A stretch of DNA of 32,000 bases. Origin: Nonlabens ponticola. GTDB lineage: Bacteria > Bacteroidota > Bacteroidia > Flavobacteriales > Flavobacteriaceae. The notes beneath the pieces were generated by a model. It did not search any database, was not told where the DNA came from, and worked only from the letters and a program-made list of their open reading frames with translations. The stretch spans positions 1,980,001 to 2,012,000 of the forward strand of contig NZ_CP034549.1 of NCBI RefSeq assembly GCF_003966335.1. Reading direction: 5' to 3'. The position numbers and the translations under genes were made by a program. Numbering within the stretch: the stretch's first letter is position 1; each line of letters opens with the position of its first letter. Below are positions 8,242 to 32,000 of the stretch, in pieces.

Positions 8242-10803
8242 TTAGGCAGAGTTGCGGCTAGCGTTAATATTGCCATAAAGAGATCTGGTCACCATCTTTT
8301 CATAAATCTCTCGTTGATCATTATTAGTATCACCCATTTCTTGAATTCGCTTTAGAGCAAATTGCTGTATAGTAAGCAACGGTAACACGATGTTTTCACG
8401 TGCCATGATACTCGCCTTTCCTGCTGGTTCATTTTCCATCAATTCGTTCATACCAGATAGTTCCAACATAAGTTTTTTGGTACGTTGATACTCTTCAAAA
8501 ATCATGGTCCAGAATGCACCATACTCTTTGTCGTCTTTCATATAACTAGTTAAACCAAAGAATGACTTAGTCAAACTCATCATACTGTTATTCAATAGCG
8601 TACGGAAAAACTTTGAGTTAGTATAGAGATCCTCTATAGCAGCCCATTTACCATTATTTTTCATTTTTTCAAGTGCTGTTCCTACGCCATAAAATCCTGG
8701 TACATTTTGCTTGAGCTGACTCCAGGATCCTACAAAGGGTATGGCTCGCAGGTCCTTAAATCGTAGCTCGCTATTACCACCACGTTTACTAGGACGACTG
8801 CCTATGTTTGTTTTTGCATAATATTTGAGCGTGCTCATATGCTCTAGATACGGCAAGAATTTATCATGCTGTTTAAAAGCCGTGTAGGCGTCATAACTAT
8901 GTTGTGATAATTCATCCATAGTTGCGCTATCTGCATCAGTAAAGTCATTGGCCTTGCTATCATAAATAGCGTTTGAAACACCACTACTCAATAGTTGCTC
9001 TAGATTGTATTGGCAACTTTCTAGTGTACCAAATTTTGAGCTTATCGTTTGTCCTTGAACAGTCAACTGTATTTGCTTTGACTCAATCTTGCTACCCATG
9101 GATGCATAAAATTCATGCGTTTGTCCACCACCACGAGCTGGTGGCCCACCACGACCGTCAAAGAAGATTACCTCAATGCCATGCTCTCGTGATACGGCTG
9201 TCAATGCTTCTTTTGCCTTGTAAATACTCCAATTAGCCATTAAGTATCCACCATCCTTGGTGCCATCACTAAAACCTAGCATAATATGCTGTTGCTCGCC
9301 ACGACGCTTTACGTGGTTGCGATAATTCTCATTAGAATACAACTGCCTCATCACATCTGGCGCAGCCTTTAGATCTGGCACCGTTTCAAAAAGTGGTACG
9401 ACATCGACGCTAGGTTTGTGCAAACCGCATAGTTGTAGCATCGCATAGGCTTGCACGATGTGTTCTACGTTTTGGGTATTTGAAATGATATAACGATGAC
9501 ATGCACGCTCACCATTGAGTTCTTGAATCTGCTTGATAGCTTTGATGCTACCAATAGTTTTTCTTGTATTCTCACTCTCAAAATCCTCTTCCTGCAGCTT
9601 ACCTGTCAAGGTAGTCAGATGGTTTAATCTTTGCTCTATGGGTAATTCCAGATAGTTGGATGGTAGTTTCGCTTTCGCGAAAGCAAACATATCATCAAAA
9701 ACTAATTCATGGATACTGCTGTCCTGCCTGATATCCAGCGCAGAGAAATGCAGTCCGAACAGCTCGATCTTATTGATGAGTGACTGCAACTTATCTGCAA
9801 ATAAGCCATTGTGTTTCTCATCTACCGTTTCCTTGATATCGCGTAATTTTTCCTGTAATTCCTGAGCAGTGAAGTTTAAAGTGCCTCTTTTCTCAATCGC
9901 TTGATATAACTGATGTTCCAGCTTCTTAAGAGGTTGTTCAACACCTGAAAATGTCAATCTGCGAGAGAGTTTGCGCAGATCACGGTAGTAATTTTTAATA
10001 ATGGTACTGCGCAACTTATGAGCCACGTCTAGTGTTATTTGCGTGGTCACAAATGGGTTGCCATCACGATCACCACCTGGCCAGAAGCCTACCTCAATCA
10101 GCTGATTTTTAAAATCAATGTTATTGGGAAGATTAGATTTTACGTAATCGTATATATTACCAATGGCGTGATAAAAGATATTCTCCAGATACCAGACGAG
10201 ACTCGTTGCCTCGTCAAACGGTGTGGGCTTTTCTTTTTTAAAAAATGGTGTCTTACCTAATTGCGCTAGTAATAACTTGACCTCTTTGATGTCATTTTTA
10301 CTCACGGCAGCGCTCAAATCATTTATAATTCCCAGTACTGATCCCGGATAGAATTGTGTAGGGTGTGCCGTCAGTACGGGCTTGATCTTAAGTTCCTTGA
10401 GATAATTGACTAATTCTTGTTCTTTTTGCAGCGCCTGTGCTTCTTCTTTAATGCTGCGCAGCGTACCGCGACCATCCAGATTTTGAACGGTTGCAAATGC
10501 AGCATCTTCTATCGCATCAAAAAGTACTACCTGACGTTCAATATATTGTATGAACCTGAATAGTTGCTGCTCGCGTTCTTGCTGCGTTGCCTCTCGCATG
10601 TAGCTGTCAAAGAAGAATTCTACAATTTCTGCAGGATTTTTTCCTCGATCAAAACCATCACGACATATCTGGCTAAAGAGCGGCAACAAGCCACCGGTAT
10701 TAGAAATTTTATCAAAAGGCAGCGTCATGAAAATACCATTGAATATCTGGTATTTTGAGGCTACTTCGTTCTCGAATCGTTGTAGTTTAGGTAATCTTGC
10801 CAT
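8242..10803 (-). CDS. ppc: Phosphoenolpyruvate carboxylase
   Basis: 853 aa with VLTAHPTQF, GFSDGTKDGGY and FFDGRGGPPARGGG signatures, and a C-terminal ...NINASRNSA-type tail. Confidence 0.95.
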   Translation of the reverse strand: MARLPKLQRFENEVASKYQIFNGIFMTLPFDKISNTGGLLPLFSQICRDGFDRGKNPAEIVEFFFDSYMREATQQEREQQLFRFIQYIERQVVLFDAIEDAAFATVQNLDGRGTLRSIKEEAQALQKEQELVNYLKELKIKPVLTAHPTQFYPGSVLGIINDLSAAVSKNDIKEVKLLLAQLGKTPFFKKEKPTPFDEATSLVWYLENIFYHAIGNIYDYVKSNLPNNIDFKNQLIEVGFWPGGDRDGNPFVTTQITLDVAHKLRSTIIKNYYRDLRKLSRRLTFSGVEQPLKKLEHQLYQAIEKRGTLNFTAQELQEKLRDIKETVDEKHNGLFADKLQSLINKIELFGLHFSALDIRQDSSIHELVFDDMFAFAKAKLPSNYLELPIEQRLNHLTTLTGKLQEEDFESENTRKTIGSIKAIKQIQELNGERACHRYIISNTQNVEHIVQAYAMLQLCGLHKPSVDVVPLFETVPDLKAAPDVMRQLYSNENYRNHVKRRGEQQHIMLGFSDGTKDGGYLMANWSIYKAKEALTAVSREHGIEVIFFDGRGGPPARGGGQTHEFYASMGSKIESKQIQLTVQGQTISSKFGTLESCQYNLEQLLSSGVSNAIYDSKANDFTDADSATMDELSQHSYDAYTAFKQHDKFLPYLEHMSTLKYYAKTNIGSRPSKRGGNSELRFKDLRAIPFVGSWSQLKQNVPGFYGVGTALEKMKNNGKWAAIEDLYTNSKFFRTLLNNSMMSLTKSFFGLTSYMKDDKEYGAFWTMIFEEYQRTKKLMLELSGMNELMENEPAGKASIMARENIVLPLLTIQQFALKRIQEMGDTNNDQREIYEKMVTRSLYGNINASRNSA
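9671..9684. repeat. Iterated palindrome copy 3, GCTTTCGCGAAAGC (14-nt core), inside ppc
   Basis: Read directly. It encodes F-AFAKA-K. Confidence 0.95.
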
Positions 10804-10855
10804 AGTCCTACTAAGGTAGGATTCCTGTCATAGACCACAATGATTTTAACGTGAT

Positions 10856-11107
10856 TTAGGCGGTAATTTTCTCTTGTACGATGCGCACGGCATCTTCTAC
10901 AGTTTGCATGTTCTCCATGTCTTTCTCATCAAGGATGATGTCAAACTCGTCCTCTACATCAAGAGCAATGTCCACAAGATGCGCGCTATTTATATTCAAA
11001 TCATTCATCAAGTGGCTATTGGATTTGATCGCCGTGGCATCGACGTCCTGTGGTAGATAGGTCTTGACAATGGTAAATAGCTTGTCTTGTATTTCTGCTT
11101 GAGTCAT
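10856..11107 (-). CDS. Acyl carrier protein (dedicated, non-canonical NSA in place of DSL). Start trimmed to MTQAEIQDKL.
   Basis: About 83 aa and acidic. DLNINSAHLVDIALDVEDEF aligns with the ACP helix II phosphopantetheine-Ser region. It lies 42 nt downstream of a KAS gene. Confidence 0.75.
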   Translation of the reverse strand: MTQAEIQDKLFTIVKTYLPQDVDATAIKSNSHLMNDLNINSAHLVDIALDVEDEFDIILDEKDMENMQTVEDAVRIVQEKITA

Positions 11108-11149
11108 GATTCTTATTCTTGCCAGCAAGATAGCATTCTATTTGTAAGA

Positions 11150-12430
11150 TTAGCCATCAATTTTTTGAAGAACTACACAGGCATTCACATCACCAAAACC
11201 GAAACTTGCCTTGATAACAGTCTTTAAATCGGCCTCGATAGTTTCTTTAGGAATTTTATCCTCATTAATAATTGCAGCTATCTCAGGATGCAATTGATCA
11301 ATATTACTATTACCATAAACCAGCTGATTTTTAAGCTGTAGGATCGTGCCAACTAATTCAATACTTCCTGCCGCAGCCAGGCAGTGGCCTATGTTTGACT
11401 TAAAACTATTAATGTAAGGAAAATTGGTTGCCGTTGTACCTAGAGCCTTCTTCCAATTCTCCACTTCAAAGGCATCTTTTCCCGTGGCTGTAACGTGACC
11501 GTTGATCGCGTCAATCTCATTAGCTTGAACGCAAGAATTTTCAAGTGCTGACTTAATTACGTTAACAACGGCATCTCCATTAGGCGCCGTCATACTACCA
11601 TCACCACGCTGGCCGCCAGAATTAATGTCGCCACCCAGAATTTCTGCATAAATAGTAGCTCCTCTTGATACTGCAGATTCTAAACTCTCAATAATCAAAG
11701 CGCCAGCACCACTACCAGGCACGAACCCTGAAGCATCTGCGGCAAATGGCCTGCTAGCGCTAGCCGGATTATCATTATACTTTGTAGGTAATATGCGCAT
11801 CGCGTCAAAACCACCCCAAATGTACGGCCCAGAATCGCTGGTGCTTCCTACCAGCATTTGGGTGGCTAGTCCGTATTTGATACGCTCATAGCCCATCAAT
11901 AAAGCTTCAGTTCCTGTGGCGCATGCACTAGAATTGCTGGTCACCATATTACCAGCACCCAATTCACCTGCAAGCCATGCGCTTATACCGCTGGTCATGG
12001 TTTGTATGACGCTCGTGCTACCTAATCTGCGCACTTTTCCTTCATCAATCAGGTTGATGGCTTCTCTAAACTTCTCGCCACCCGATTGACCTGTGCCAAA
12101 TATGACGCCTAACTGGTCATGTGCATGATCTGCTGGTGCGACTTCTAGCCCAGCATCTTTGTATGCCTCTTTACCAGCTATAATACCGTAAAGCATGCCG
12201 CTTGCCCTGAATCCTCGTTGTTGTAAAGGTGTTAGGTATTCATCAATCATTTCTTGAGATACCTGCGGCGTTCCAGCCACTTGACAGCCAAAATTCAAAT
12301 CTGCCAACTGCTGCTCAAATCTGATGCCACTGATCCCTTTTCTCAAGGCTGCCTCAAACTCTGGTACAGTAATAGCGTTAGGCGCTACAACGCCAAGACC
12401 GGTTACCACTACTCTATTATTTACTGACAT
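11150..12430 (-). CDS. Beta-ketoacyl-ACP synthase (KAS I/II, FabF/FabB-like elongating condensing enzyme)
   Basis: Active-site Cys in SNSSACATG, plus His motifs HVTATGKD and NIGHCLAAAG (C-H-H triad). C-terminal SFGFGDVNACVVL. Confidence 0.9.
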   Translation of the reverse strand: MSVNNRVVVTGLGVVAPNAITVPEFEAALRKGISGIRFEQQLADLNFGCQVAGTPQVSQEMIDEYLTPLQQRGFRASGMLYGIIAGKEAYKDAGLEVAPADHAHDQLGVIFGTGQSGGEKFREAINLIDEGKVRRLGSTSVIQTMTSGISAWLAGELGAGNMVTSNSSACATGTEALLMGYERIKYGLATQMLVGSTSDSGPYIWGGFDAMRILPTKYNDNPASASRPFAADASGFVPGSGAGALIIESLESAVSRGATIYAEILGGDINSGGQRGDGSMTAPNGDAVVNVIKSALENSCVQANEIDAINGHVTATGKDAFEVENWKKALGTTATNFPYINSFKSNIGHCLAAAGSIELVGTILQLKNQLVYGNSNIDQLHPEIAAIINEDKIPKETIEADLKTVIKASFGFGDVNACVVLQKIDG

Positions 12431-12557
12431 ATCCTGCTAATCTATAAACAATACAGCTTTAATCACTATATGAAAGGAAGTATGTACATGAAAATGTGAA
12501 GCGATTGAGATATTCTTGCAACATCTTGTGATTATCATTGCCCTTCAAAGTGCTATC

Positions 12558-13826
12558 ATGATTTTAAGATTCATATTCATATTTGTTTTCTCGGGTTATT
12601 CTGTATCTATAACCGCTCAGTCTTTCCAGATCAACGAGCTTGAATTTAGTGGTCTTGACAAAACAAAAGAGTCATTTTTAAGGCGTATTCTCAAGACAAA
12701 GCCAAAATCTAAAATCGACTCTACCAGAATTGCTATTGATCTAGAACGACTGAACAGATTACCAGGAATCGCAAAGGCGACGGTTACAAAGCAATTACAA
12801 TCTAACGGTGTGTATGATTTACTGTTTCAAATAGAAGAAAACTTCACTATAATTCCCGGCATACGAGTCAATACAGCGCCCAACGGTGATTTTGCATTTA
12901 GATTATCGCTGTTTGAATTCAATGCTCTTGGTGCTAATCATTTGATTGGTGGTTACTATCAAAACGAGGTTTTCTCATCCTATGGAGGTTTTATCGAGTC
13001 AAGGTATCTATTTACTAATAAATTAGGTTTAGGCATCAACTATCAGGATAACAACACCTTTGAAAATATCTTCTTTGATAATGAGACCGAGACTAATTAT
13101 AGATACCAAAGACAATCATTTGAAAGCTATCTCATGTATGAATATGACTTTCATAACAGAGCGGAATTAGGATTCGAATTTGCTGCCGATGAATACACCT
13201 ATGAGGATGGATTTATTAATGATCAACTACCAGAAAACCTTGAGGCAAACAAACTCAATTTACGTGGTCAATATGAATACATCAATCTCTTAAGAGACTA
13301 TCAATATTTCACAGGCTGGCGCAATCAAACAGACGTACGGTATGAGACTGGTGGTGATGGATTTCTAGATGATAATGTGATTATCACAAATGACCTTGAG
13401 AACTTCACACGCGTAGGTAAAAGAGGTAATTGGGCCACACGTTTGAGATTGGGTTACATGACCAATAATCAAACGCCATTTTCTCCTCTCATCATTGATA
13501 ATCAGCGCAATGTAAGAGGTGCAGGAAATGTTGTGGATCGCGGTAGCGCTAGTATCACTTTAAACACAGAATATCGACATACATTACTAGAAAAAGGCTG
13601 GTTTGTCCTGCAAAGCAATACTTTTCTGGATCTCAATACACAACGGCAAATCAATGAGGATTTTGGTAGTGCGTTTGATTCTACCAGTTTTAGAGCTTCT
13701 CCAGGATTGGGCGTGCGTTTCATTCATAAACGCATATTTAATGCAGTCATTAGATTGGATTACGGCTTTGGGATTGGTGAGAATGCGGCGAGTGGTCTCG
13801 TGTTTGGGATAGGTCAGTATTTTTAA
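12558..13826 (+). CDS. Omp85/BamA-family-like outer-membrane beta-barrel protein with a single POTRA-like domain. Start trimmed from the TTG at 12516 to the ATG at 12558.
   Basis: Signal peptide MILRFIFIFVFSGYSVSITAQ. POTRA-like INELEFSGLDKTKESFLRRIL...ERLNRLPGI. Alternating beta-strand pattern with aromatic C-terminus GIGQYF. Confidence 0.65.
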   Translation: MILRFIFIFVFSGYSVSITAQSFQINELEFSGLDKTKESFLRRILKTKPKSKIDSTRIAIDLERLNRLPGIAKATVTKQLQSNGVYDLLFQIEENFTIIPGIRVNTAPNGDFAFRLSLFEFNALGANHLIGGYYQNEVFSSYGGFIESRYLFTNKLGLGINYQDNNTFENIFFDNETETNYRYQRQSFESYLMYEYDFHNRAELGFEFAADEYTYEDGFINDQLPENLEANKLNLRGQYEYINLLRDYQYFTGWRNQTDVRYETGGDGFLDDNVIITNDLENFTRVGKRGNWATRLRLGYMTNNQTPFSPLIIDNQRNVRGAGNVVDRGSASITLNTEYRHTLLEKGWFVLQSNTFLDLNTQRQINEDFGSAFDSTSFRASPGLGVRFIHKRIFNAVIRLDYGFGIGENAASGLVFGIGQYF

Positions 13827-14267
13827 TCAGCCTTTCAGGATCATGCCGCTTAGGAATCCTTCGGCTATTTTTTGTTCATTCTCATCGAGCATTTGCACAG
13901 CAACCTTGAGTTTATTGAATTTAAAATATTCTTTCCTAGCACTAACAATCACGGTCGTATTAGGTAGTACCAGATTAATAAAATTAACGTGAGCCTCTGT
14001 AAAGACAAATTGTGGCTTTATCGCTCTTTCCTTGACAAGATGGCTGCCCAGACAGGCCAGTCCAATTTGCGCCATACATTCTTGCAGGATGACTCCAGGC
14101 GTTACAGGTTTGGTATTAAAATGGTGTTTGTAGAAGTATTCGCTTTCGCGAAAGCGGTACACGCCAATTACATGGTCGTTAGATAGCTCCAATATCTTAT
14201 CGACAAACTTAAAACCATCACCGTAAGGCAAGTTGGCTACAATTTTATCGTGGTCATCAAGAATCAT
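13827..14267 (-). CDS. FabA/FabZ-like 3-hydroxyacyl-ACP dehydratase (hotdog fold)
   Basis: YFYKHHFNTKPVTPGVILQECMAQ matches the FabZ catalytic motif (HF..P.PGV...E..AQ). 146 aa. Confidence 0.85.
   Translation of the reverse strand: MILDDHDKIVANLPYGDGFKFVDKILELSNDHVIGVYRFRESEYFYKHHFNTKPVTPGVILQECMAQIGLACLGSHLVKERAIKPQFVFTEAHVNFINLVLPNTTVIVSARKEYFKFNKLKVAVQMLDENEQKIAEGFLSGMILKG
14141..14156. repeat. Iterated palindrome copy 4, CGCTTTCGCGAAAGCG, inside the dehydratase gene
   Basis: Read directly. It encodes Y-RFRES-E, about 6 codons before the catalytic HHF motif. Confidence 0.95.
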
Positions 14268-14275
14268 AGGTGTAG

Positions 14276-15055
14276 TTAAATTAAGGATTCACCACCATCA
14301 ACCTTGATGATCGTACCGTTGATAAAGTCACTTTCTGGACGACATAATACATACACAACGTTTGCCACATCTTCTGGTTGTGTGAGTCGATTCATGGGAT
14401 TGCGCTCTAAGCTATGCGCCTTGAGCTGCTCATAATTAGGAATGCGTTGAAGACTTTCGGTATCAGTAACGCCGGCCTGTATGCAATTTGTGGTGATGCC
14501 GTGTCGTGCAAATTCTAGTGCCATGTTGCGTGTTATGGCTTCTAATGTTGCTTTGGCAGCGCTGACCGCAGCGTAGCCCGGCATTGGTCTTTGATTTCCC
14601 TCGCTAGTGAAACTTATGATACGTGCTGGATTGGCTATAAGTTCTTTGCTTATCAATGCTTGCGACCATTCATAAAGACTGATGCCCATTGAATGTACGG
14701 TTTGCTCAAAATCGCCAACATTTAGCGGATTGTCGCCGGTCATGGGTTTTAAATTTCCTTTGGAAATACTATGTAATAGCAAATAGATTTTTCTTTTATC
14801 CAGAAACGCGGTGACTTGCTCTATGATGGATGGTAGCTTGATAGATGATGTCGCATCTGCATTGATGTATAAATGTTGTGCGGCATGTTCGAGAGTATCA
14901 AATCGTGCTTGAATAGTGTTTACTTGAATTCTAGATGCGCGGTAAACAATAATCAATCTCATACCATGCGCTGCCAGCTTTTGAGCACTCGCAAAACCTA
15001 AACCGCTGCTGCCTCCTAAAATCAGGCCTACCTTGCCATCCAGATCCTTTACCAT
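14276..15055 (-). CDS. SDR with an enoyl-ACP reductase (FabL/FabI-like) Y-x6-K signature
   Basis: GGSSGLGFASA nucleotide-binding motif. PGYAAVSAAKATLEAITRNMALEF...NCIQAGVTDT and C-terminal NGTIIKVDGGESLI resemble B. subtilis FabL and E. coli FabI rather than the FabG YxxxK motif. Confidence 0.6.
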   Translation of the reverse strand: MVKDLDGKVGLILGGSSGLGFASAQKLAAHGMRLIIVYRASRIQVNTIQARFDTLEHAAQHLYINADATSSIKLPSIIEQVTAFLDKRKIYLLLHSISKGNLKPMTGDNPLNVGDFEQTVHSMGISLYEWSQALISKELIANPARIISFTSEGNQRPMPGYAAVSAAKATLEAITRNMALEFARHGITTNCIQAGVTDTESLQRIPNYEQLKAHSLERNPMNRLTQPEDVANVVYVLCRPESDFINGTIIKVDGGESLI

Positions 15056-16104
15056 TGCAATAAAATACGTTGCGCAGTAAATCCAGGCCCAAAGCTGAGC
15101 ATCAATCCATGATCGCCAGATTTCACGTCTTTTCTTCTCATAAAACGATCCAATACAAAAAGTACGGTGGCGCTGCTCATATTACCGTAAAGTCTCAAAA
15201 CTTCTTTAGTATCATCGATATTTTTCCCTAAATCGCTGAACAATACCTCAACCGTCTGTACGATTTTCTTACCGCCTGGATGAAAAATCAGATGATCAAC
15301 GTTTGCAATTTCCAGATCATTCTTTTCCAAGAATGGATGTATAATCGCTGGAAAATGGCTTGCGATGGTCTCTGGAACCGACTTGTCCAATACCATCTTA
15401 AGACCGCTATTAACAAGATCAAAACCCATCATGTGGGTCGCGTCTGGAAAGTGGTACATCTCATGCGCTTTTACTGTTGGACCGCTGGTATGATCATCAG
15501 ATGAGAGCAACACACAAGCACAACCATCACCAAAGATCGCTGCACTGACCATATTTGCCATGGAATAATCATTTAACTGAAACGTAGCCGTAGGCGCTTC
15601 AATAGCTATTACTGCTGCTTTTTTACCTGGATTTGCTGTGAGGAAATTAGTTGCATAAATAAGACCTGATATTCCAGCAACGCAGCCCATTTCAGTTACC
15701 GGTAATCGTACAATGTCCTGACGCATGTGCAGATCATTGATTAAGTACGCATCGATGGACGGAATCATAATTCCTGTGCAGCTCACGGTAATGATGTAAT
15801 CAAGATCCTGCGCTTTCCAGCTAGCTTGATGGAGTGCTTTTTCAACAGCCTGGCGCGCAAGAGGAACTACTTCTCTCTTGTAGATGTCGTTGCGGTCTTG
15901 AAACGACGTTCTCGTGAATACTTCAATAGGATCCATGATAGAATATCGCTTGTCTACTGCGGCGCCCTCAAAAATCTTGATGGTCTTGCGTCGCAGGCGT
16001 TCATCTTGATCTGCGAGCCATGTTTCCACAAACGGTAAAATTTCGGCTGTTTCCTTATAGTATGCTGGTGTGACCGTAGCCACCGTTGCTATTTTAACGC
16101 TCAT
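15049..16104 (-). CDS. Type III polyketide synthase (chalcone/stilbene synthase family)
   Basis: Cys-His-Asn triad contexts VSCTGIMIPS, FHPGGKKI and YGNMSSATV, plus C-terminal SFGPGFT. 351 aa. Confidence 0.92.
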   Translation of the reverse strand: MSVKIATVATVTPAYYKETAEILPFVETWLADQDERLRRKTIKIFEGAAVDKRYSIMDPIEVFTRTSFQDRNDIYKREVVPLARQAVEKALHQASWKAQDLDYIITVSCTGIMIPSIDAYLINDLHMRQDIVRLPVTEMGCVAGISGLIYATNFLTANPGKKAAVIAIEAPTATFQLNDYSMANMVSAAIFGDGCACVLLSSDDHTSGPTVKAHEMYHFPDATHMMGFDLVNSGLKMVLDKSVPETIASHFPAIIHPFLEKNDLEIANVDHLIFHPGGKKIVQTVEVLFSDLGKNIDDTKEVLRLYGNMSSATVLFVLDRFMRRKDVKSGDHGLMLSFGPGFTAQRILLQW

Positions 16105-16804
16105 TAATCGGGATCTCCCATATATAACGGAACGACCACTTCCATGTCAATCGGTCATTGGTAATACTGCATTTATCGGCATATCTCTTAAAGTCTGAAC
16201 GCTTAAATCCTGATGCAATAGAGATAAGTCCATCATGCCTAGAAATACGATGCTTGATAAAAATAGGACTAAAAAACTTAAAGAAATAGAATGCAAGAAT
16301 ATTCCTATGCAAGTCATTGATGATGATTCTAGTACTTGTAATCTCTTGAAATTTGTTGAGAAATTTCGGTATTTGTTCTTCATTAAAATGGTGCAATGTC
16401 AACGTACATAGCATGATATCGCAATTCAATTGTTCTGGTGGTGTTTTGAGAATATCGCTTTCGCGAAAGCTAATACGTGAATAATTCTTACACTTCTCAC
16501 GAGCATTTGAAATAGATTTAGTGCTCAAATCAACTCCTATGTAATCAATATTATCATGTGCCAAATGATCACTTAAATATCGCAACATAGCACCGTCGCT
16601 GCAACCCAGGTCGATAATCGTGTAAGAGTCTTTTGGATTATTTTGAAGAGCTTTCTTGACAGCATTAAGTGTAAACTTATAACCACCTAGATACGTATTT
16701 ACTTTGTTAACGTCATTTACAGCATGACGCAGCTGCTCTTGGCTAATGCTGGGATCGTCCATCATTTCAGGCAATGTACTGCGCTTACTCGAACTATATA
16801 TCAT
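16094..16804 (-). CDS. Class I SAM-dependent methyltransferase
   Basis: Motif I IIDLGCSDGAM, with motif post-I/II spacing (YIGVDLS). Overlaps the T3PKS start by 11 nt. Confidence 0.85.
   Translation of the reverse strand: MIYSSSKRSTLPEMMDDPSISQEQLRHAVNDVNKVNTYLGGYKFTLNAVKKALQNNPKDSYTIIDLGCSDGAMLRYLSDHLAHDNIDYIGVDLSTKSISNAREKCKNYSRISFRESDILKTPPEQLNCDIMLCTLTLHHFNEEQIPKFLNKFQEITSTRIIINDLHRNILAFYFFKFFSPIFIKHRISRHDGLISIASGFKRSDFKRYADKCSITNDRLTWKWSFRYIWEIPINER
16457..16470. repeat. Iterated palindrome copy 5, GCTTTCGCGAAAGC, inside the methyltransferase gene
   Basis: Read directly. It encodes I-SFRES-D. Confidence 0.95.
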
Positions 16805-17916
16805 GCAGAAACTGGTTTGCCATGTGTTTTTCTAATAATCAATTTTAAACTAGACGGCACTAGTTTGAGAGCATTGTACATGATTCTTGTCAATTGAGGA
16901 TTTATTAAAATGGACTGTATCCAGCGACCGTAACGCATACGATTACCAAAGTTTTTTTTCCAACTTTTTTGATATTCTGCAAGCATGGTTTTTCTTGAAA
17001 TGGTATTGTCCATATATTTCTTCACCAATTTACTCGCGATATGAGCACTATGAATAGCCATTGCCATGCCGTTGCCGCATAATGGATGAATCAATCCTGC
17101 GGCGTCACCTATGAATAAAAAATCGCTTTTAGTCTTACCACGCTTATCAAAGGATATTTGAGAGATACTTATGGGCTTGTCCCAAAGCGGTATGGCATTC
17201 TCAAAAAAAGCTTTCAAATGAGGATTTGCTGAAAGCACATGCTTATTAAATTGTTCTATTTCCTTGAATTGTTGAAAAGACTTGAAAGTCGTCAAATAAC
17301 AGAGATTAACAGCGCCTGATTCTACTCTAGATAATCCAGCATAGCCACCATTAAAATTATGCAGCTGCACCTCATTCCATGACATGTCATATTGATAATG
17401 CATCTTTACAGCAAGCCATTCGTTTTTCTTGAAAGCGAAATCTCTATCTAATGCCTTATCAAGAATGGATCGTTTTCCAGTAGCGATAATAAATTGCCTG
17501 CAAGAGAAACTTTCACGGTCCGTGGTAATCTCATGGCAATCATCAGTTGATTTTGCATTCAACACCTTTGCGGTGATGATCGTGGCTTTTTTACTTGCTA
17601 TTTTAAATAGTTCATGATCTAGGCAATATCTTGATACGCCATAACCTCCTAGCGGTAAATCATTTTGAATGAGATCACCATTGGTGGTTGACACTTTAAA
17701 CTTTTGAATGTGTGCGCTGGTTAATGTTTTTAAATTGACGCCATAAGATGCGAGCACGTCATAAATTTCGGCACTTAGGTATTCTCCACACATCTTATGA
17801 CGTGGATATTCATGAGGATCAATAAGTAAAACTTGGTATTCTTGAGATAGCTCAATAGCAGCACAAAGTCCAGAAAGACCACCACCAGCAATAATAATAT
17901 CGTATGAATTCACCAC
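16801..17916 (-). CDS. FAD-dependent oxidoreductase/monooxygenase (geranylgeranyl-reductase/UbiH-like fold)
   Basis: N-terminal DIIIAGGGLSGLCAA dinucleotide motif and GDAAGLIHPLCGNGMAMA flavoprotein motif. ATGA stop/start overlap with the methyltransferase gene. Confidence 0.85.
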   Translation of the reverse strand: MVNSYDIIIAGGGLSGLCAAIELSQEYQVLLIDPHEYPRHKMCGEYLSAEIYDVLASYGVNLKTLTSAHIQKFKVSTTNGDLIQNDLPLGGYGVSRYCLDHELFKIASKKATIITAKVLNAKSTDDCHEITTDRESFSCRQFIIATGKRSILDKALDRDFAFKKNEWLAVKMHYQYDMSWNEVQLHNFNGGYAGLSRVESGAVNLCYLTTFKSFQQFKEIEQFNKHVLSANPHLKAFFENAIPLWDKPISISQISFDKRGKTKSDFLFIGDAAGLIHPLCGNGMAMAIHSAHIASKLVKKYMDNTISRKTMLAEYQKSWKKNFGNRMRYGRWIQSILINPQLTRIMYNALKLVPSSLKLIIRKTHGKPVSA

Positions 17917-17956
17917 TACTCAAAGATAGTGGTAAGCAAACTTAAATGAGGTTCAA

Positions 17957-18175
17957 TTAAGCTTCAGAAGTTTCAGATTTCTCTGTAAAATACCTGCGTT
18001 GTATCAACTTAAGAATCAAGTAGATAACAAGTAGCGAGCTGAAAAGTCCTAACAGTAATCTTCCAGTGTACCCTAATGTTCCCTCGCTAGGTCCAAATGC
18101 TACTAAAAGAGAGAACAGAATTGTCAGAAACCATAGAACGTATCTAAAGTTATCTGCTTCATCCATAAATTTCAT
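17957..18175 (-). CDS. Small two-TM membrane protein, function unknown
   Basis: 72 aa with two hydrophobic helices. It sits in the gap between the E1 and FAD-oxidoreductase genes on the same strand. Confidence 0.45.
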   Translation of the reverse strand: MKFMDEADNFRYVLWFLTILFSLLVAFGPSEGTLGYTGRLLLGLFSSLLVIYLILKLIQRRYFTEKSETSEA

Positions 18176-18238
18176 AGCTATAGTTTTAAATGGTTACTTA
18201 GGGGCTGCGTAAAAATAGCAAATGCAACCTGTAAAAAT

Positions 18239-20224
18239 TTAATACTCCAGCAGTTTTTTTACAGCAATTTCTAGCTTTTGTTTAGGTAAATACTGATTTT
18301 CTAATCCTTTTTCAAAAGGTATAGGCGTATCTATACTACCTAACCTCATTACTGGAGCATCTAGACTTTCAAAACAGTGTTCACCTATCCATGCCGCTAT
18401 ATCACTAGCAACACTACCTGTAAGGTTATCCTCACATAGTACAATAACCTTACCCGTTTTCAATACACTTGTCTCAATGGCTTCATAGTCTAGAGGCTGC
18501 AAACACCTTAAGTCAACTAAATCGATATCGTAGTGCATTTTATCGATTATTTCTAATACCCAATGAACGCAGGCACCATAGGTGATGACGGTTAACGCTT
18601 CACCTTTGTTAATTATCTTGGCTTTTCCTAGTTCGATTTTATACGATCCTTGCGGTACATCGCCATAAACAGAACGATACAATGCCTTATGCTCAAAAAA
18701 TAAGACTGGATTAGGATCTTCAATAGCTGCTTGTAATAAACCCTTGGCGTCGTCTGGAAATGCAGGGTAAACAATCTTGAGTCCAGGAATCGTGTAGAAC
18801 CAAGCCTCATTTGATTGTGAATGGAATGGCCCAGCGCCAACGCCAGCACCACACGGCATCCTTATAACGACATCTGCTGGCTGTGACCAGCGGTAATGTG
18901 ATTTGGCTAGATAATTTACAATAGGATTAAATCCACTACTAACAAAGTCTGCAAATTGCATCTCTACAACGGCTTTCATTCCTGCGATGCTCAAACCCAT
19001 TCCAGTCTCGACTACAGCGCTCTCACAAATAGGTGTATTACGCACTCGATCTGCGCCAAATTCTTCTAGAAATGCCTCGGTTATCTTGAAAACACCACCG
19101 TAGTCAGCGATATCTTGTCCCATAAGAACCAAATCAGGAAATTTACGCATGGATTCCAGCAAACCATCTCGTATCGCGTCGATAAGTCGGATATTGGTGA
19201 TGGAGTTACTAGGTTCACTTGCAGTAAAGCTATATGGTGCGTACACATCATTTATTTCTTGCTCGATGGTTGATGATGGTAACGCTTTCGCGAAAGCGGT
19301 ATCCAAACCATCATTAATATGCTGTTTAAATTCTTGTGTAAAATCATCAATCATCATACAAGTGAGCATTCCTTGATCAAGCAACTGATCTTCTAATCGA
19401 CTGATTGGGTCAAGCGTTTCCCAATGAGCTATAAGGTCATCAGGAACGTATGCAGTACCACTGGCTTCCTCATGTCCACGACGCCTAAAGGTTTTAAATT
19501 CTAGCAGCACCGGTCGCGGATTTTCTCGAATATCCTCGAGAAGCTTACGAACCTGATGATAAACCTGCAGTACATCGTTACCGTCGATTATACGAGACTC
19601 CATGCCGTAACCCACTGCCCTATCTGCAAGATCCTTGCAAGCGTATTGCTGGCTGGTAGGCGTACTCAAACCGTAACCATTATTTTCAATACAAAACATA
19701 ACGGGCAATTGCCACACACTTGCAATGTTTAGCGCTTCATGAAAGTCGCCTTCGCTTGTGCCGCCTTCACCGGTAAAAACGATGGTCGCTTTTTTCTCGG
19801 CTCGTATTTTGTGAGCTAGGGCAATTCCATCTGCGACACCCATTTGCGGTCCTAGATGAGAAATCATCCCAATGATTTTGTGCTCTTGAGATCCAAAATG
19901 AAAACTGCGATCGCGACCCTTAGTAAACCCATCTGCCTTTCCTTGCCATTGTGCAAAAAGCTTCCATAACGGAATATCTCTAGTTGTAAAAACGCCCAGA
20001 TTGCGATGCATGGGTAGTATGTACTCATCGTCATTTGCTGCCATGGTCACACCTACTGAAATTGCTTCTTGCCCAATACCAGAGAACCACTTGGATATTT
20101 TTCCTTGTCTCAATAGAATGAGCATCTTCTCCTCTATCAATCGAGGCAGCAGCATTGCTTTATATAATGCTAGTTGCTGGTCGTGTGAAACCACAGACGA
20201 GCGTTCTTGATGAGTTTGTTGCAT
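18239..20224 (-). CDS. 2-oxoacid (branched-chain/pyruvate-type) dehydrogenase E1 component, fused alpha/beta subunits, TPP-dependent
   Basis: 661 aa. The N-terminal half carries the E1-alpha TPP motif GEGGTSEGDFHEALN...NNGYG. The C-terminal half is an E1-beta/transketolase-like pyrimidine-binding region (DRVRNTPICESAVV...PCGAG..GPFHSQS). Confidence 0.88.
   Translation of the reverse strand: MQQTHQERSSVVSHDQQLALYKAMLLPRLIEEKMLILLRQGKISKWFSGIGQEAISVGVTMAANDDEYILPMHRNLGVFTTRDIPLWKLFAQWQGKADGFTKGRDRSFHFGSQEHKIIGMISHLGPQMGVADGIALAHKIRAEKKATIVFTGEGGTSEGDFHEALNIASVWQLPVMFCIENNGYGLSTPTSQQYACKDLADRAVGYGMESRIIDGNDVLQVYHQVRKLLEDIRENPRPVLLEFKTFRRRGHEEASGTAYVPDDLIAHWETLDPISRLEDQLLDQGMLTCMMIDDFTQEFKQHINDGLDTAFAKALPSSTIEQEINDVYAPYSFTASEPSNSITNIRLIDAIRDGLLESMRKFPDLVLMGQDIADYGGVFKITEAFLEEFGADRVRNTPICESAVVETGMGLSIAGMKAVVEMQFADFVSSGFNPIVNYLAKSHYRWSQPADVVIRMPCGAGVGAGPFHSQSNEAWFYTIPGLKIVYPAFPDDAKGLLQAAIEDPNPVLFFEHKALYRSVYGDVPQGSYKIELGKAKIINKGEALTVITYGACVHWVLEIIDKMHYDIDLVDLRCLQPLDYEAIETSVLKTGKVIVLCEDNLTGSVASDIAAWIGEHCFESLDAPVMRLGSIDTPIPFEKGLENQYLPKQKLEIAVKKLLEY
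19283..19298. repeat. Iterated palindrome copy 6, CGCTTTCGCGAAAGCG, inside the E1 gene at the alpha/beta junction region
   Basis: Read directly. It encodes T-AFAKA-L. Confidence 0.95.
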
Positions 20225-20410: not shown

Positions 20411-21361
20411 ATGAACAATATCCCTAGCGTCGATCTAGCCGACTTTTTGAGCGATGATCCAGAGAGAAAGAAAAAATTTATCAGTGAAATAGGTAAAGCT
20501 TATGAAGACATAGGTTTTGTTGCCTTGAAGAACCACTTTCTATCTGATGAGTTGGTTGAAAAATTATATACTGAAGTTGAAAAGTTCTTTCAATTACCTG
20601 TAGAAACCAAGAAAGGTTATGAACGTGAGGAAATAGGCGGCCAGCGCGGTTATGTGTCTTTTGGAAAAGAGCATGCCAAGGGCAAGAAAGAAGGTGACCT
20701 CAAGGAATTCTGGCATTTTGGACAAGAACCAGCTACCGATGCCGATCTAGGTGAAGAGTATCCTGACAATGTTATCGTTAAGGAACTACCAGACTTTAAT
20801 GAGACCGGTATGGAAGCTTATAGGATGCTTGAGAAAACAGGTATTCATGTCTTGAGAGCATTAGCACTTCACATAGGATTGCAAGAGAATTATTTTGATC
20901 ATTGGGCAAGCAATGGGAATTCCATCTTAAGACCTATTCACTATCCACCTATAAAATCAGAGCCGGAAAACGCTGTGCGTGCTGGAGCTCATGGTGACAT
21001 TAACCTTATTACTTTATTGATGGGTGCAAGTGCGCCTGGACTGCAGGTTCAAAATCGCAATGGCGACTGGATCGATGCTATAGCTCAAGAGGACGAACTA
21101 GTTATCAATGTAGGTGACATGTTACAGCGGCATACTAATAATAAACTGCGATCCACGATTCACCGCGTGGTGAATCCACCGCGCGAGCTGTGGCACACGC
21201 ATCGCTACAGCATACCGTTTTTCTTGCATCCACGCAGCGACATGCGCCTGGATTGCCTAGAAGAATGTATTGATGAGGATAATCCTAAACATTATGAAGA
21301 CATCACCGCTGGTGAATTCTTGCATCAGCGTCTCGTAGAGATAGGATTGATTAAAAAGTAA
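20411..21361 (+). CDS. 2-oxoglutarate/Fe(II)-dependent oxygenase (isopenicillin N synthase-like family)
   Basis: HxD...H facial triad contexts (AHGDINLITLL, RSTIHRV) and the N-terminal non-haem dioxygenase region. 316 aa. Confidence 0.85.
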   Translation: MNNIPSVDLADFLSDDPERKKKFISEIGKAYEDIGFVALKNHFLSDELVEKLYTEVEKFFQLPVETKKGYEREEIGGQRGYVSFGKEHAKGKKEGDLKEFWHFGQEPATDADLGEEYPDNVIVKELPDFNETGMEAYRMLEKTGIHVLRALALHIGLQENYFDHWASNGNSILRPIHYPPIKSEPENAVRAGAHGDINLITLLMGASAPGLQVQNRNGDWIDAIAQEDELVINVGDMLQRHTNNKLRSTIHRVVNPPRELWHTHRYSIPFFLHPRSDMRLDCLEECIDEDNPKHYEDITAGEFLHQRLVEIGLIKK

Positions 21362-23428: not shown

Positions 23429-24115
23429 TTATCCTTTCACTTCTTGTTCTGCTTCACGACGCATTTCTTCACCAGCTACAATACCTATCTCTACACGACG
23501 GTTTTGTGCTCTACCTTCGGCCGTCTCGTTGGTTGCCTTAGGATCAGTCTCACCAGAATATGTTACTGCCATACGTGATGACGCAATGCCATCCTCGACT
23601 AGATAGTCTCTTACGGCAAATGCTCTTTTTCTAGATAACTCTAAATTATAAGCTGCATCACCTGTACTATCGGTATGACCAGAAACTAGAATTTCTGTAC
23701 CTGGATAATCATTCATTACACTTACTAACTTATCAAGTGTAGCTTTTGAACCTGCATTGAGTGTAGATTGATTAGTGGCAAATTTGATACCGCTACCTTC
23801 ATCAAAAGTTACAACAATACCTTCACCTACTCTTTCAACTTCGGCACCTGGAAGCTCTTGCTGAATTTCCTGCGCTTGCTTGTCCATTCTACGACCAATC
23901 ACATTACCCGCAACACCACCTACAACTGCACCGATAACGGCACCTTCAGTTTGATTATCACCATCACCAACATTGTTACCTATGATAGTTCCTAAAATGG
24001 CACCACCAGCGGCACCTATGGCGGTACCACGTTGTTGCTTATTACTATTTTTTATTGATTCACAACCAGTAAATAATACTACTGCCATTGCGATACTTAA
24101 GATTCTTGTTTTCAT
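23429..24115 (-). CDS. OmpA-family lipoprotein with an N-terminal glycine-zipper region
   Basis: Lipobox LFTGCES, a Gly-zipper (GAAGGAILGTIIGN...GAVVGGVAGNVIG) and an OmpA C-domain (SGHTDSTGDAAYNLELSRKRAFAVRDYL...NRRVEI). Confidence 0.9.
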   Translation of the reverse strand: MKTRILSIAMAVVLFTGCESIKNSNKQQRGTAIGAAGGAILGTIIGNNVGDGDNQTEGAVIGAVVGGVAGNVIGRRMDKQAQEIQQELPGAEVERVGEGIVVTFDEGSGIKFATNQSTLNAGSKATLDKLVSVMNDYPGTEILVSGHTDSTGDAAYNLELSRKRAFAVRDYLVEDGIASSRMAVTYSGETDPKATNETAEGRAQNRRVEIGIVAGEEMRREAEQEVKG

Positions 24116-24140: not shown

Positions 24141-24620
24141 TTATTCTGCTAATTTTCTAAAATTCATACTTACTATTACCGTGCGACCATCAACTAAAAC
24201 ACTTTGGTTCCATGTCATGCTATTTTCTGTGATATTCTTTACATTGACACGGTATCCTGCGTCAGTCTCGCTCTTGTAGTTATCGCCAGTAGGCTTGATC
24301 AACAGATCACCTTCAATGATGTCCTTTGATCCAGGTACAGACCAGATAAAATTGCGCGTTCCTGTAGTACATGATGGGTCTTCAATACTGTAATTACCTC
24401 GATTATTATTGGCAACAAAATACCACATGCTACCTTCAAAACATTGGCCAGTAACATCCTGCAATAAGGTAGATTCAAATTGACCGTTACCGCTGTAAGT
24501 CACGCTATCGATAGTCCAGTTACCACCTACATTATTTTCGGTTTGTTTTACAGCGTTTTTGGTACCACAGCCTACAAGAAGTAAGGCCGCAAACAATGAT
24601 GTAAAAAGATACTTTTTCAT
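24141..24620 (-). CDS. Lipocalin-like lipoprotein
   Basis: Lipobox LLVGCGT. GNWTIDSVTY near the N-terminus is typical of the small lipocalin-like domains of Bacteroidota. It is 25 nt upstream of the OmpA-like gene. Confidence 0.55.
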   Translation of the reverse strand: MKKYLFTSLFAALLLVGCGTKNAVKQTENNVGGNWTIDSVTYSGNGQFESTLLQDVTGQCFEGSMWYFVANNNRGNYSIEDPSCTTGTRNFIWSVPGSKDIIEGDLLIKPTGDNYKSETDAGYRVNVKNITENSMTWNQSVLVDGRTVIVSMNFRKLAE

Positions 24621-31500: not shown

Positions 31501-31932
31501 CTCTTCCATGACCTCACGTTGCATGGGATTGCCATCTGGATCAGTTCCCTGGATGACAACGTCAAAATAGGTTTCGGTACTCAGGAACGTATCTTCTACA
31601 GCACCTTCACGTATCAACATCATTCCTTCAAAAGATACGTATCTAGTGATTCCAGCGCCAATTATGATAAGAATCCACGACAAGTGCAGTGTCAGCGTTG
31701 CCCACTTTTTCCACTGCCATAGATTATATCGCTTGATATTGTAGATAAAATTGATCATTAACCACAGCATCAACAATGAGAACCACCACTCATTATATAC
31801 CCAAAGCTTTGAGGTAGGCGTGTCATAAGAATTCTCAATAAAGGTTCCTACGGCCATGCTTATCGCAAAAACCAGTAGCAAAATAGACATCGTTCTTGTA
31901 GAAAATAAAAACGCCTTGATACGGTCTTTCAT
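28537..31932 (-). CDS. ccsBA: Fused cytochrome c biogenesis protein (system II ResB/CcsB-like N-half plus CcsA C-half). Start trimmed to MKDRIKAF.
   Basis: The N-half has ResB-like TMs and a large periplasmic domain. The C-half is a multi-TM CcsA with the WWD motif WGRYWGWDPKETWA. A His-rich linker lies between the halves. About 1131 aa. Confidence 0.85.
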   Translation of the reverse strand: MKDRIKAFLFSTRTMSILLLVFAISMAVGTFIENSYDTPTSKLWVYNEWWFSLLMLWLMINFIYNIKRYNLWQWKKWATLTLHLSWILIIIGAGITRYVSFEGMMLIREGAVEDTFLSTETYFDVVIQGTDPDGNPMQREVMEEMLISQYDYKRKETFDFYDKDIVITVDSLIYDAVEGLKPVENGGDRFLKIVEAGGGNRHDHLLKDGEKASIHGVLFGVNLDPDLAEKEGVINIIENWNGYQLQTPFAGDYMRMADQQEGEVFQDSIQPLQLRSLYSVAGMQFVIPDPILEGEVGIIESPEPTEAKALGLFGTIAVGDDVQPLELRGGKGMLTDYSSFKLDDMDVYVRYGSRERTVPFEIQLDDFIANKYPGTEKGYSSFESQVTVIDPDGTEKKERIYMNNVLDKEGYRFFQSGFDNDEGGTHLSVNHDFWGKTVTYAGYYLLYIGLLALIIDPNTRFGELRRLINRVEKRKAKKLAMIAILMTSGLSFAQTTDHEDHTGHNHAQQQVVQEDHTGHNHEVQDNDTSFENRDGQSTNLDSGEHLYNNPEPAESLAPEVYPEIPRRLLDSIIVLNLVPEAQAERFGRVVVQDEGRMKPMSTLASEILRRVSERDYYEAQVGDSIVKLTPEQTIISMMQLGQLWYEVPLIKLKRGNDSIRDILQIDRSRKYASLMDFLRDKDGERVPYVLNDYLDEANRSDIKTAFQKDFIQTDFAFAILSQVVTGNILKIFPKPDSENDRWYARPELEEAGYTREGDYNFVRDFVPAYTTLLAQGKESGDYLRANTALNSLFEFQRAYGEDVMPSEDKIEAEILYNKYDVFKKLHLWYYWFGIFMLILLITQIIKPMKEIGWAITFHKYVIIGIFVVHMAALIIRWYLSGHAPWSDAYESLIYVAWATMAFGLAFGRKSKMTIASTAIVVAIILMVASWNWLDPSISNLQPVLDSYWLMIHVAVIVGSYGPFALGMILGLVSFLLMIFTTAKNKDIMDLNIKEITYINEIALTVGLIMLTIGNFLGGMWANESWGRYWGWDPKETWALISIFVYAFVLHLRLVPGLKGRWTFNLWSILAFYSVLMTYFGVNFYLSGLHSYASGDQIFSYNAIVISLVVIGVIAGFARWREKKYYGNKRLK

Positions 31933-32000
31933 AGTAGAATTTAAACGGCTGCAAAGATACTTTACAAAAGCCTTAACACCATGCCTTGTAGGTCGCATGT

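Follow-up and report, generated by a model that had tools for sequence, protein, structure and literature searches.

Type III polyketide synthases (T3PKSs) normally release their products as free phenols or pyrones, and in the Steely fusions the synthase is fed by a carrier. Gene sets of the srs and pkq type, with a T3PKS, a methyltransferase and a flavoprotein, make alkylresorcinols, their methyl ethers and alkylquinones (PMC6669644, PMC9927152). In srs-operon homologues (51-63% identical to the Streptomyces griseus proteins), srsB encodes a protein of the isoprenylcysteine carboxyl methyltransferase (ICMT) family (PMC6669644). The hid set has an S-adenosylmethionine (SAM) methyltransferase, a flavin adenine dinucleotide (FAD) oxidoreductase and, last, a T3PKS (PMC6836626, PMC8086630). 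HidA methylates 5-pentadecylresorcinol in vitro and HidB, the FAD-dependent oxidoreductase, is the proposed ring hydroxylase (PMC6836626). HidC is proposed to start from a thioester of an acyl carrier protein (ACP), ArsB and ArsC are believed to take thioesters bound to an ACP in vivo (PMC8086630), and CylI takes its chain from the type I polyketide synthase CylH and can use ACP-bound substrates (PMC8086630, PMC6836626). Here we compare these systems with a gene cluster in a 32,000-nt stretch of the genome of Nonlabens ponticola (the window; all window coordinates are positions in that stretch), in which genes for a T3PKS, a methyltransferase and a flavoprotein stand together with genes resembling those for type II fatty acid synthase (FAS).

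T3PKS clusters are the second most frequent class of biosynthetic gene cluster in Flavobacteriaceae, with ~0.39 per marine-clade genome and occurrence in all Sediminicola genomes, and the cluster described here is among the commonest flavobacterial "T3PKS" matches in genome-mining surveys (PMC7440613, PMC12613372). According to one study, an Aquimarina T3PKS family matches nothing in MIBiG (PMC9860996). The initial annotation of the window, made from the sequence alone, noted no characterised product for this architecture in Flavobacteriia. Consistent with this, the full-text literature that we searched (mostly outside subscription journals) contained surveys only and named neither a product nor a mutant phenotype for a flavobacterial T3PKS cluster; nor did it contain a description of a T3PKS supply made of discrete type II proteins. 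We found that the conserved unit is larger than the known actinobacterial and cyanobacterial three-gene cassette: it adds a ketoacyl synthase, a dehydratase, an ACP and, usually, a phosphopantetheinyl transferase (PPTase). The cluster is widespread, uncharacterised and experimentally accessible.

Organization of the cluster in N. ponticola

The genes of the cluster and the one gene inserted into it are as follows.

16801..17916, minus strand: FAD-dependent oxidoreductase, GTG start, Pfam FAD_binding_3; predicted ring hydroxylase
16094..16804, minus strand: class I (Rossmann-fold) SAM-dependent methyltransferase (MT), Methyltransf_25/31/12/11; predicted to O-methylate the phenolic ring
15049..16104, minus strand: T3PKS, Chal_sti_synt_N/C; the core enzyme
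14276..15055, minus strand: FabL-like short-chain dehydrogenase/reductase (SDR), adh_short_C2, FabL the best NCBIfam model; probable enoyl-ACP reductase (ER) and optional member
13827..14267, minus strand: FabZ-like 3-hydroxyacyl-ACP dehydratase (DH), Pfam FabA/FabZ hot-dog
12516..13826, plus strand: putative outer-membrane protein (Omp85-like) with a POTRA domain; lineage-specific insertion, not a member of the conserved cluster
11150..12430, minus strand: elongating beta-ketoacyl-ACP synthase (KAS), a FabB/FabF-like paralogue with ketoacyl-synt N and C domains
10856..11107 (open reading frame (ORF) also 10856-11128), minus strand: dedicated ACP, PP-binding, with NINSA in place of DSL

The minus-strand order is thus FAD-MT-T3PKS-SDR-DH followed by KAS-ACP, with the plus-strand gene between DH and KAS. 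The ORF list of the window matches each of the eight genes as first annotated, and Pfam and NCBIfam domain calls concur with the identities given there. The T3PKS is 100% identical to the NCBI entry "type III polyketide synthase [Nonlabens ponticola]", and the FAD protein is likewise 100% identical to an entry from this species. The junctions, read directly from the sequence, are those that the initial annotation had reported: an ATGA overlap between FAD and MT, an 11-nt overlap between MT and T3PKS (ATGAGCGTTAA), a 7-nt overlap between T3PKS and SDR (ATGGTAA) and an 8-nt gap between SDR and DH. The stop of the Omp85-like gene (13826) abuts that of DH (13827).

The two halves of the cluster are inherited together

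We scanned a collection of one genome per species with the T3PKS as anchor. This gave at least 579 matching stretches, and the best 80 were analysed by tblastn and ORF clustering (counts out of 80 refer to these). They come from more than 15 named genera, including Nonlabens, Aequorivita, Flavobacterium, Psychroflexus, Salinimicrobium, Salegentibacter, Zobellia, Winogradskyella, Polaribacter, Ulvibacter, Altibacter and Autumnicola. The MT gene was present in all 80 loci (median identity 38%), DH in 79, FAD in 77, KAS in 76 and ACP in 74. Of the four loci that lack KAS, three are cut off by a contig edge, which leaves KAS present in 76 of 77 informative loci. The genes had a single order, FAD-MT-T3PKS-[SDR]-DH-KAS-ACP, on a single strand in 76/77 informative loci. 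Median gaps between genes of the block were -4 to +17 nt, the exception being SDR-DH (116 nt), and flanking genes varied between genera while the block stayed. The SDR gene was found in 42/80 loci and was absent from the sampled Flavobacterium spp.; by this distribution it is an optional member. The initial annotation was right to see an enoyl-reductase-like SDR, and its placing of that enzyme in the supply module holds for only part of the family.

The reverse test gave a similar result. For it we searched a metagenome collection with an alignment of KAS sequences, headed by design by one from a locus lacking a PKS. Among loci with enough upstream sequence, 61 of 64 had a T3PKS or the cluster SDR upstream, and ACP directly followed KAS in 73/74 metagenome loci. 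Co-conservation of KAS and ACP with the PKS operon, on which the initial annotation had staked its proposal, therefore holds in both directions.

A private ACP with its own PPTase is typical of dedicated pathways. An ACPS-family PPTase of ~165 aa directly follows ACP in 51/80 genome loci and in 59/62 metagenome loci of the KAS-anchored set (for example L012, 13235-13726; L172, 14866-15378; L090, 10526-11158). No PPTase was found in the 32-kb window by tblastn with 51 orthologues or by a hidden Markov model (HMM) search over six frames, and it is also absent from the Nonlabens, Aequorivita and Zobellia loci. The usual PPTase position, downstream of ACP (8242-10855), is taken in the window by a phosphoenolpyruvate carboxylase gene.

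The cluster also occurs more widely. A lineage of Flavobacteriales metagenome-assembled genomes (MAGs; L082), with a T3PKS 59% identical to that of the window, has the order MT-MT-T3PKS-SDR-DH-KAS-ACP-PPT, with overlaps from gene to gene from T3PKS on, and its FAD gene lies 6 kb from the cluster. The two methyltransferases before its T3PKS are tandem class I enzymes, and an MbnP-MbnP-MauG-MauG block lies a few kb downstream (8597-10004; 15811-19994). Brumimicrobium glaciale, which we take to belong to the Crocinitomicaceae, has the full gene set. A genome of Flavobacterium johnsoniae (L172) carries the cluster with junctions similar to those of the L082 lineage; this species is a standard genetic model, so the question is open to experiment. 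Upstream of its cluster are a TetR regulator and a 4HBT/acyl-ACP-thioesterase-like protein (8588-9714). Downstream (15575-17182) is a 535-aa AprA-like protein with AprA_N, WHD_AprA and Methyltransf_36 domains; in the loading module of apratoxin biosynthesis, AprA is the methyltransferase by which branched starters are made. Taken together, these comparisons are best explained by a cluster that is ancestral to many Flavobacteriales and forms one operon-type biosynthetic unit.

Outside this group the two halves are found apart. In a full-library HMMER search, T3PKS identity dropped quickly: it was 60% for Flavobacteriales MAGs, 47% for a Planctomycetota MAG and under 45% thereafter. We looked at seven T3PKS relatives from outside Flavobacteriales (35-47% identity). 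In five, both a methyltransferase, of class I or ICMT, and a FAD_binding_3 protein adjoin the T3PKS; in one only a methyltransferase does, and in one neither does. YceI is nearby in 5/7. None of the seven has a KAS, ACP or dehydratase near the T3PKS. A 146-aa gene in the Planctomycetota cassette was considered as a relative of DH, and the comparison gave no relationship. The FAS-like module is thus a Flavobacteriales-specific addition to a widespread three-gene phenolic-lipid cassette.

DH-KAS(-ACP) triads without a PKS were found in a Chitinophagales MAG and a few metagenome contigs (L089, 8506-10582; L091, 7956-11232; L094, 1284-2998; L109; L101). DH-KAS-ACP stands alone in the Chitinophagales MAG, another contig has GT2-DH-x-KAS-DUF1295, and the remaining three contigs are short. 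The ACPs of these triads keep the D/N-I-N-S-A motif; DH-KAS-ACP(-PPT) is therefore a unit that can separate in evolution. Linkage to a PKS is seen in the nearest relatives of the Chitinophagales KAS (L092, L093; 65-68% identity), which suggests a secondary separation of this triad, not an independent origin. One PKS-less triad is followed by a DUF1295/steroid-reductase-like membrane protein.

The trio of T3PKS, methyltransferase and flavoprotein resembles hidABC more than srsABC

The initial annotation had matched the T3PKS, methyltransferase and flavoprotein to SrsABC. The three enzyme classes do agree with srsABC of S. griseus and with actinobacterial pkqABC, and the window FAD protein is homologous to that of a T3PKS-ICMT-FAD cassette (L086). 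The methyltransferase family and the gene order do not agree. The window MT matches Methyltransf_25/31/12/11 (E 1e-16 to 1e-11), with no ICMT or PEMT match in the Pfam scan. It is a class I Rossmann enzyme, whereas SrsB-type enzymes are membrane proteins of the ICMT family, and it is therefore not an SrsB orthologue. The srs order is PKS-MT-FAD, in contrast to FAD-MT-PKS followed by ER, DH, KAS and ACP in the window, and srs draws on acyl-CoA pools without private FAS parts. The likeness to SrsABC is thus one of analogy.

Because its MT is of class I and not ICMT, the trio is more like the cyanobacterial hidABC. Judged by Pfam class and published descriptions, hidABC of Cyanobium sp. LEGE 06113 is the closest described analogue: both are compact sets of a T3PKS, a soluble SAM methyltransferase and a FAD oxidoreductase, with the T3PKS last in the commonest hid order. 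Unlike the window cluster, hid lacks a dedicated KAS, ACP, dehydratase, ER and PPTase, and the order of its two tailoring genes differs. A T3PKS relative of 45% identity, whose surrounding genes look cyanobacterial to us, adjoins methyltransferase and FAD partners of these types.

A dedicated fatty-acyl supply paired with a T3PKS, with hand-over from a carrier domain, is the feature in common with ArsABCD of Azotobacter vinelandii and Steely of Dictyostelium. Their supply is a multidomain type I FAS, whereas that of the window would consist of discrete type II proteins, lacks its own ketoreductase (KR) and acyltransferase (AT), and has a stand-alone ACP and, usually in the family, a PPTase. 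No multidomain FAS of the ArsA/ArsD type was present within 10 kb among the clustered ORFs of the 80 loci. Cylindrocyclophane biosynthesis offers a further parallel, proposed by analogy, in that CylH hands a carrier-bound elongated acyl chain to the resorcinol-forming T3PKS CylI. There, unlike in the window, type I PKS modules elongate the chain, and the pathway ends in a dimerised paracyclophane; the window cluster has no CylK-like gene.

The T3PKS has an intact catalytic triad

The window T3PKS matches Chal_sti_synt_N/C (E 1e-20). Its triad C141/H275/N308 is invariant in an alignment of 79 orthologues and 6 distant relatives, and C141 lines up with the Cys that the Pks11 variant 4jat has exchanged for Ser. 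Among PDB entries, the best match is Mycobacterium tuberculosis Pks11 over the full length (residues 9-351 against 9-352, 161 bits), followed by tetrahydroxynaphthalene synthase (THNS), CylI (fourth best, 139 bits) and Steely1 (among the five best). By these comparisons the enzyme has the Cys-His-Asn triad of the family and belongs to the bacterial long-chain-acyl type. We also tried to predict resorcinol or pyrone formation from the residue equivalent to G256 of chalcone synthase. Pks11 and Steely1 have Trp at this position, THNS has Tyr, CylI has Leu and the window enzyme has Phe, and the residue is uninformative.

The top-scoring representative in the full-library search was a 4818-aa protein model from the green alga Cymbomonas tetramitiformis (P0121, KAK3233920.1). 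It holds 12 separate type III PKS-like stretches and represents either one giant protein with tandem domains or a gene array that has been fused.

The FAS-like module consists of paralogues of housekeeping enzymes

The SDR scores 151 bits against NCBIfam FabL (cutoff 328), its best PDB match is Bacillus subtilis FabL (3oic), and it carries a conserved YAAVSAAK, with the Y-x6-K spacing of the FabI/FabL signature. It is probably an enoyl-ACP reductase. DH matches the Pfam FabA domain (E 2e-11) and NCBIfam FabZ (48 bits, below the cutoff of 113), and its His/Glu motif HF..PVTPGVIL.ECMAQIG is conserved among orthologues. KAS scores 269 bits against fabF (cutoff 494), 245 bits against FabB (cutoff 630) and at most 173 bits against the remaining KS models listed. 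Its best PDB matches are of the FabB type (3u0f, 7pps, 1dd8), with the polyene-forming KS 6smo scoring lower. The initial annotation had called it a C-H-H elongating KAS, and the Cys/His/His and a Lys at FabF-like spacing are invariant in the KAS alignment.

The ACP reads DLNINSAHLVDI and retains the serine within N-I-N-S-A. Its best NCBIfam ACP model gives 46 bits against a cutoff of 71, and all ACP models fall below their cutoffs. The unusual site (NSA for DSL) had been pointed out before; it proves to be conserved, as DLNINSA(H/N)LVDI, in 74 ACP orthologues, in the L082 lineage and in the PKS-less triads L089 and L109. In these alignments the motif is a signature of the whole clade.

All FAS-like members score far below the cutoffs for housekeeping enzymes and are therefore paralogues of primary FAS, not primary FAS itself. 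They resemble the housekeeping type II set (FabF/FabB, FabZ, FabL/FabI, AcpP, AcpS) in fold and catalytic residues: ER Y-x6-K, KAS Cys-His-His-Lys, DH His/Glu and the ACP serine. They differ in falling below the equivalog cutoffs, in NINSA for DSL, in being incomplete and in lying in an operon like those of secondary metabolism.

The flavoprotein

The best NCBIfam model for the FAD enzyme is GG-red-SF (105 bits, below the cutoff of 159), and QhpG and LodB-type monooxygenases are next best. Its motifs PRHKMCGE and GDAAGLIHPLCGNGM recur in FAD genes that accompany a T3PKS in cassettes of other phyla (L081, L086, L087), the consensus being PRxKxCGE and GDAAGxxxPxxGxGM. Identity to these proteins is 22-25% (E 1e-14 to 1e-16), with full-length alignment to several. 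The match to the srs-like cassette L086 is 22.5% identical within the same FAD_binding_3 family, with the CGE and GDAAG motifs in common.

An AF2 model of the enzyme (pLDDT 87.7) has as structural neighbours phenol and pyrrole halogenases, flavin monooxygenases, p-hydroxybenzoate hydroxylase and geranylgeranyl reductase (GGR), all at TM scores of 0.70-0.77. The modelled fold is thus that of group-A flavoprotein monooxygenases, halogenases and GGRs, and assignment of a function by fold was abandoned because all of these lie within the same range. Our best guess, made by analogy with the srs and hid enzymes, is a ring hydroxylase.

A proposed pathway and its alternatives

We put at about an even chance the proposal that the genes form one operon-type cluster that makes a membrane-associated phenolic lipid, derived from an alkylresorcinol or alkylpyrone, on a starter built on the private ACP. 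The ACP would be phosphopantetheinylated by the AcpS-type PPTase of the cluster in most lineages and, in N. ponticola, by an enzyme encoded elsewhere. The acyl chain on ACP would be extended by the FabB/F-like KAS and processed by the FabZ-like DH and, where present, the FabL-like ER, with malonyl loading and ketoreduction supplied by housekeeping FabD and FabG. The acyl-ACP would then serve as the starter for the T3PKS, which would add malonyl-CoA units and cyclise the product. O-methylation of the ring by the class I MT and hydroxylation by the flavoprotein would give a methoxylated alkyl-phenol, hydroquinone or quinone. We infer from gene content and from the systems above the flow from module to PKS, the transfer by ACP and not by CoA, the ring chemistry and its regiochemistry, the chain type and the role in the cell; the direct ACP-to-T3PKS hand-off and the "unusual" starter of the initial annotation are likewise suggested by analogy. 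If the module does feed the PKS, the cluster would be a discrete type II counterpart of the "FAS plus type III PKS" logic of Ars and Steely, and a defined system for the study of acyl-ACP recognition by type III PKSs.

Several points weigh against this proposal. The link between the two halves is genomic only. DH-KAS-ACP occurs without a T3PKS (L089, L091, L094, L109) with the same ACP motif, and therefore adjacency by itself is no proof of a supply to the PKS; the module is missing from the closest T3PKS cassettes outside Flavobacteriales, so that each half can apparently function alone. The module has no KR, AT or initiating KS and so must borrow housekeeping enzymes. The window has no PPTase, and in it the Omp85-like insertion splits KAS-ACP from the remaining cluster. 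The cyclisation type is not readable from the T3PKS sequence, and the modelled fold of the FAD enzyme does not separate a hydroxylase from a reductase or halogenase.

The separable DH-KAS-ACP unit keeps alive a reading that we consider doubtful, namely that two pathways share one operon. DH-KAS-ACP(-PPT) would then be an independent lipid module, for example a FabA/FabB-like pair that produces an unsaturated or otherwise special fatty acid on a carrier of its own, and the T3PKS trio would draw on ordinary acyl-CoA or housekeeping acyl-ACP, as do Hid and Srs. The stand-alone triads of the Chitinophagales MAG and other contigs fit this, as does the fact that the Hid-like and Srs-like cassettes closest by sequence do without such a module. 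The DH-then-KAS order is that of the Pseudomonas fabAB operon, and together with the FabB-type PDB matches of KAS (several of whose homologues JGI labels "synthase I") it leaves a role in unsaturation open. Yet linkage is near-universal in both directions (76/77 and 61/64), the stop/start overlaps continue across the T3PKS-SDR-DH-KAS boundary, and the PKS-less Chitinophagales KAS has PKS-linked relatives. FabZ-type dehydratases have His/Glu and FabA-type enzymes His/Asp, and by this distinction DH is of the FabZ type. A flow in the reverse direction, or a hybrid, appears very unlikely: the T3PKS would be a priming ketosynthase or the source of an aromatic head group, or KAS, DH and ACP would build a chain like that of an aryl polyene (APE), giving a polyenyl- or aryl-capped lipid. 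This would suit the "T3pks-arylpolyene" label that antiSMASH 3 gave to what appears to be the Aequorivita version of the cluster (PMC6139392), the lack of a FabH-type initiator in the module and of an ER in about half of the lineages, and the ApeI/ApeP-like matches in precomputed Pfam annotations of several orthologous dehydratases. In our own scan, however, the ApeI-like match of DH had an E value of 0.23, which is not significant, and we rejected an APE relationship of DH on this ground. An APE- or flexirubin-type cluster was rejected as well: there is a single KAS, with no chain-length factor, KR, second ACP or LolA/MMPL export genes within 10 kb. The KAS scores highest against FabF and FabB, with FabB structures above 6smo, a FabL-type ER is present in 42/80 loci, and free phenols and pyrones are poor primers.

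It is also possible, and in our view unlikely, that the pathway is as proposed and the flavoprotein is not a ring hydroxylase. It would instead reduce C=C bonds of an alkenyl side chain in the manner of a GGR, or be a halogenase of atypical kind, and the product would lack the extra oxygen, being a methyl ether and not a quinone. In GGRs the catalytic Cys sits in a motif similar to K.CGE, and the window enzyme has a conserved Cys in its ...K.CGE... motif, with the GGR superfamily as best NCBIfam model. Phenol and pyrrole halogenases are its top structural neighbours, with GGR in the same TM range, some Nonlabens orthologues are named "alkylhalidase homolog", and the chlorine of hierridin C is introduced by an unknown enzyme (PMC6836626). 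On the other side, the flavoprotein lacks the WxWxIP halogenase motif, its conserved columns around residues 70-80 do not include an invariant Lys, and the monooxygenases QhpG and LodB are the next best matches. The same CGE-motif flavoprotein is found in the T3PKS-ICMT-FAD cassette of srs-like order (L086), and SrsC and HidB are described as hydroxylating partners (PMC6669644, PMC6836626).

A more specific form of the proposed single pathway, which we regard as quite improbable, is that DH and the FabB-like KAS act as a FabA/FabB-style pair on the private ACP and install a cis double bond or other feature, and that the T3PKS takes the chain directly. The product would be an alkenyl methoxy-hydroquinone or -quinone, a redox-active membrane lipid beside menaquinone. 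Several of the sampled Flavobacteriales that carry the cluster come from cold habitats. If true, this would be the first T3PKS system fed by a type II FAS and would add a new lipid class to a marine group that is ecologically dominant; in the ocean, Flavobacteriales rank among the chief degraders of organic matter from algae. A redox-active lipid in many Flavobacteriales would be comparable to the actinobacterial polyketide quinones.

The Omp85-like insertion and neighbouring genes

A gene like the antisense Omp85-like gene is present at this position in 3/80 loci, all from Nonlabens (44-51% identity), and by this distribution is a lineage-specific insertion, not a cluster member. The initial annotation had correctly placed it, antisense, between DH and KAS. 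The label "Omp85-like" rests on a single POTRA match (26.4 bits) and a C-terminal Phe (...GIGQYF); no barrel domain was matched in Pfam or NCBIfam, and no PDB sequence. The listed ORF begins with a TTG (12516), and 14 codons further on, near 12558, an in-frame ATG opens the signal-peptide-like MILRFIFIFVFSGYSVSITAQ and is likely the true start. This would leave a divergent intergenic region of ~127 nt (12431-12557) between the Omp85-like gene and KAS, in which KAS-ACP must then have a promoter of its own, unless it is expressed by antisense read-through.

Sigma-70 promoter-like sites in the window were not in excess (24, against 23.2 in shuffled sequence), in a scan that takes no account of Bacteroidota promoters. 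For terminator-like sites the count was below expectation (3 against 5.7), with none at gene boundaries. No Rfam families or tRNAs were found in the window.

A 72-aa ORF (17957-18175, minus strand) lies 40 nt upstream of the FAD gene. It has the look of a two-helix membrane protein, is present in four Nonlabens loci only and is without a family match. Further upstream on the same strand as the cluster is a gene for a fused alpha/beta E1 of 2-oxoacid dehydrogenase (18239-20224, minus strand), which is directly upstream of the cluster in 33/80 loci; if of the branched-chain type, it may be a source of branched acyl-CoA primers. Beside it is a 2-oxoglutarate-Fe(II) oxygenase gene (20411-21361, plus strand; 36/80 loci). 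Neither is present in the loci of the sampled Flavobacterium spp.

An OmpA/glycine-zipper lipoprotein and a lipocalin-like lipoprotein (23429-24115 and 24141-24620, minus strand; clusters c11 and c14) occur in 28-29/80 loci. They adjoin the FAD gene upstream in Aequorivita, Psychroflexus, Salegentibacter, Zobellia and others, and lie ~5.5 kb further upstream in the window. YceI, which has a lipocalin-like fold that binds lipids, flanks T3PKS cassettes of other phyla (L081, L085-L088). These neighbours could be a recurring lipid-carrier partner or reflect mere synteny. At the edge of the window, a 1153-aa ORF (28537-31998, minus strand) carries ResB-like as well as CcsA-like domains (cytochrome c assembly) on a single polypeptide.

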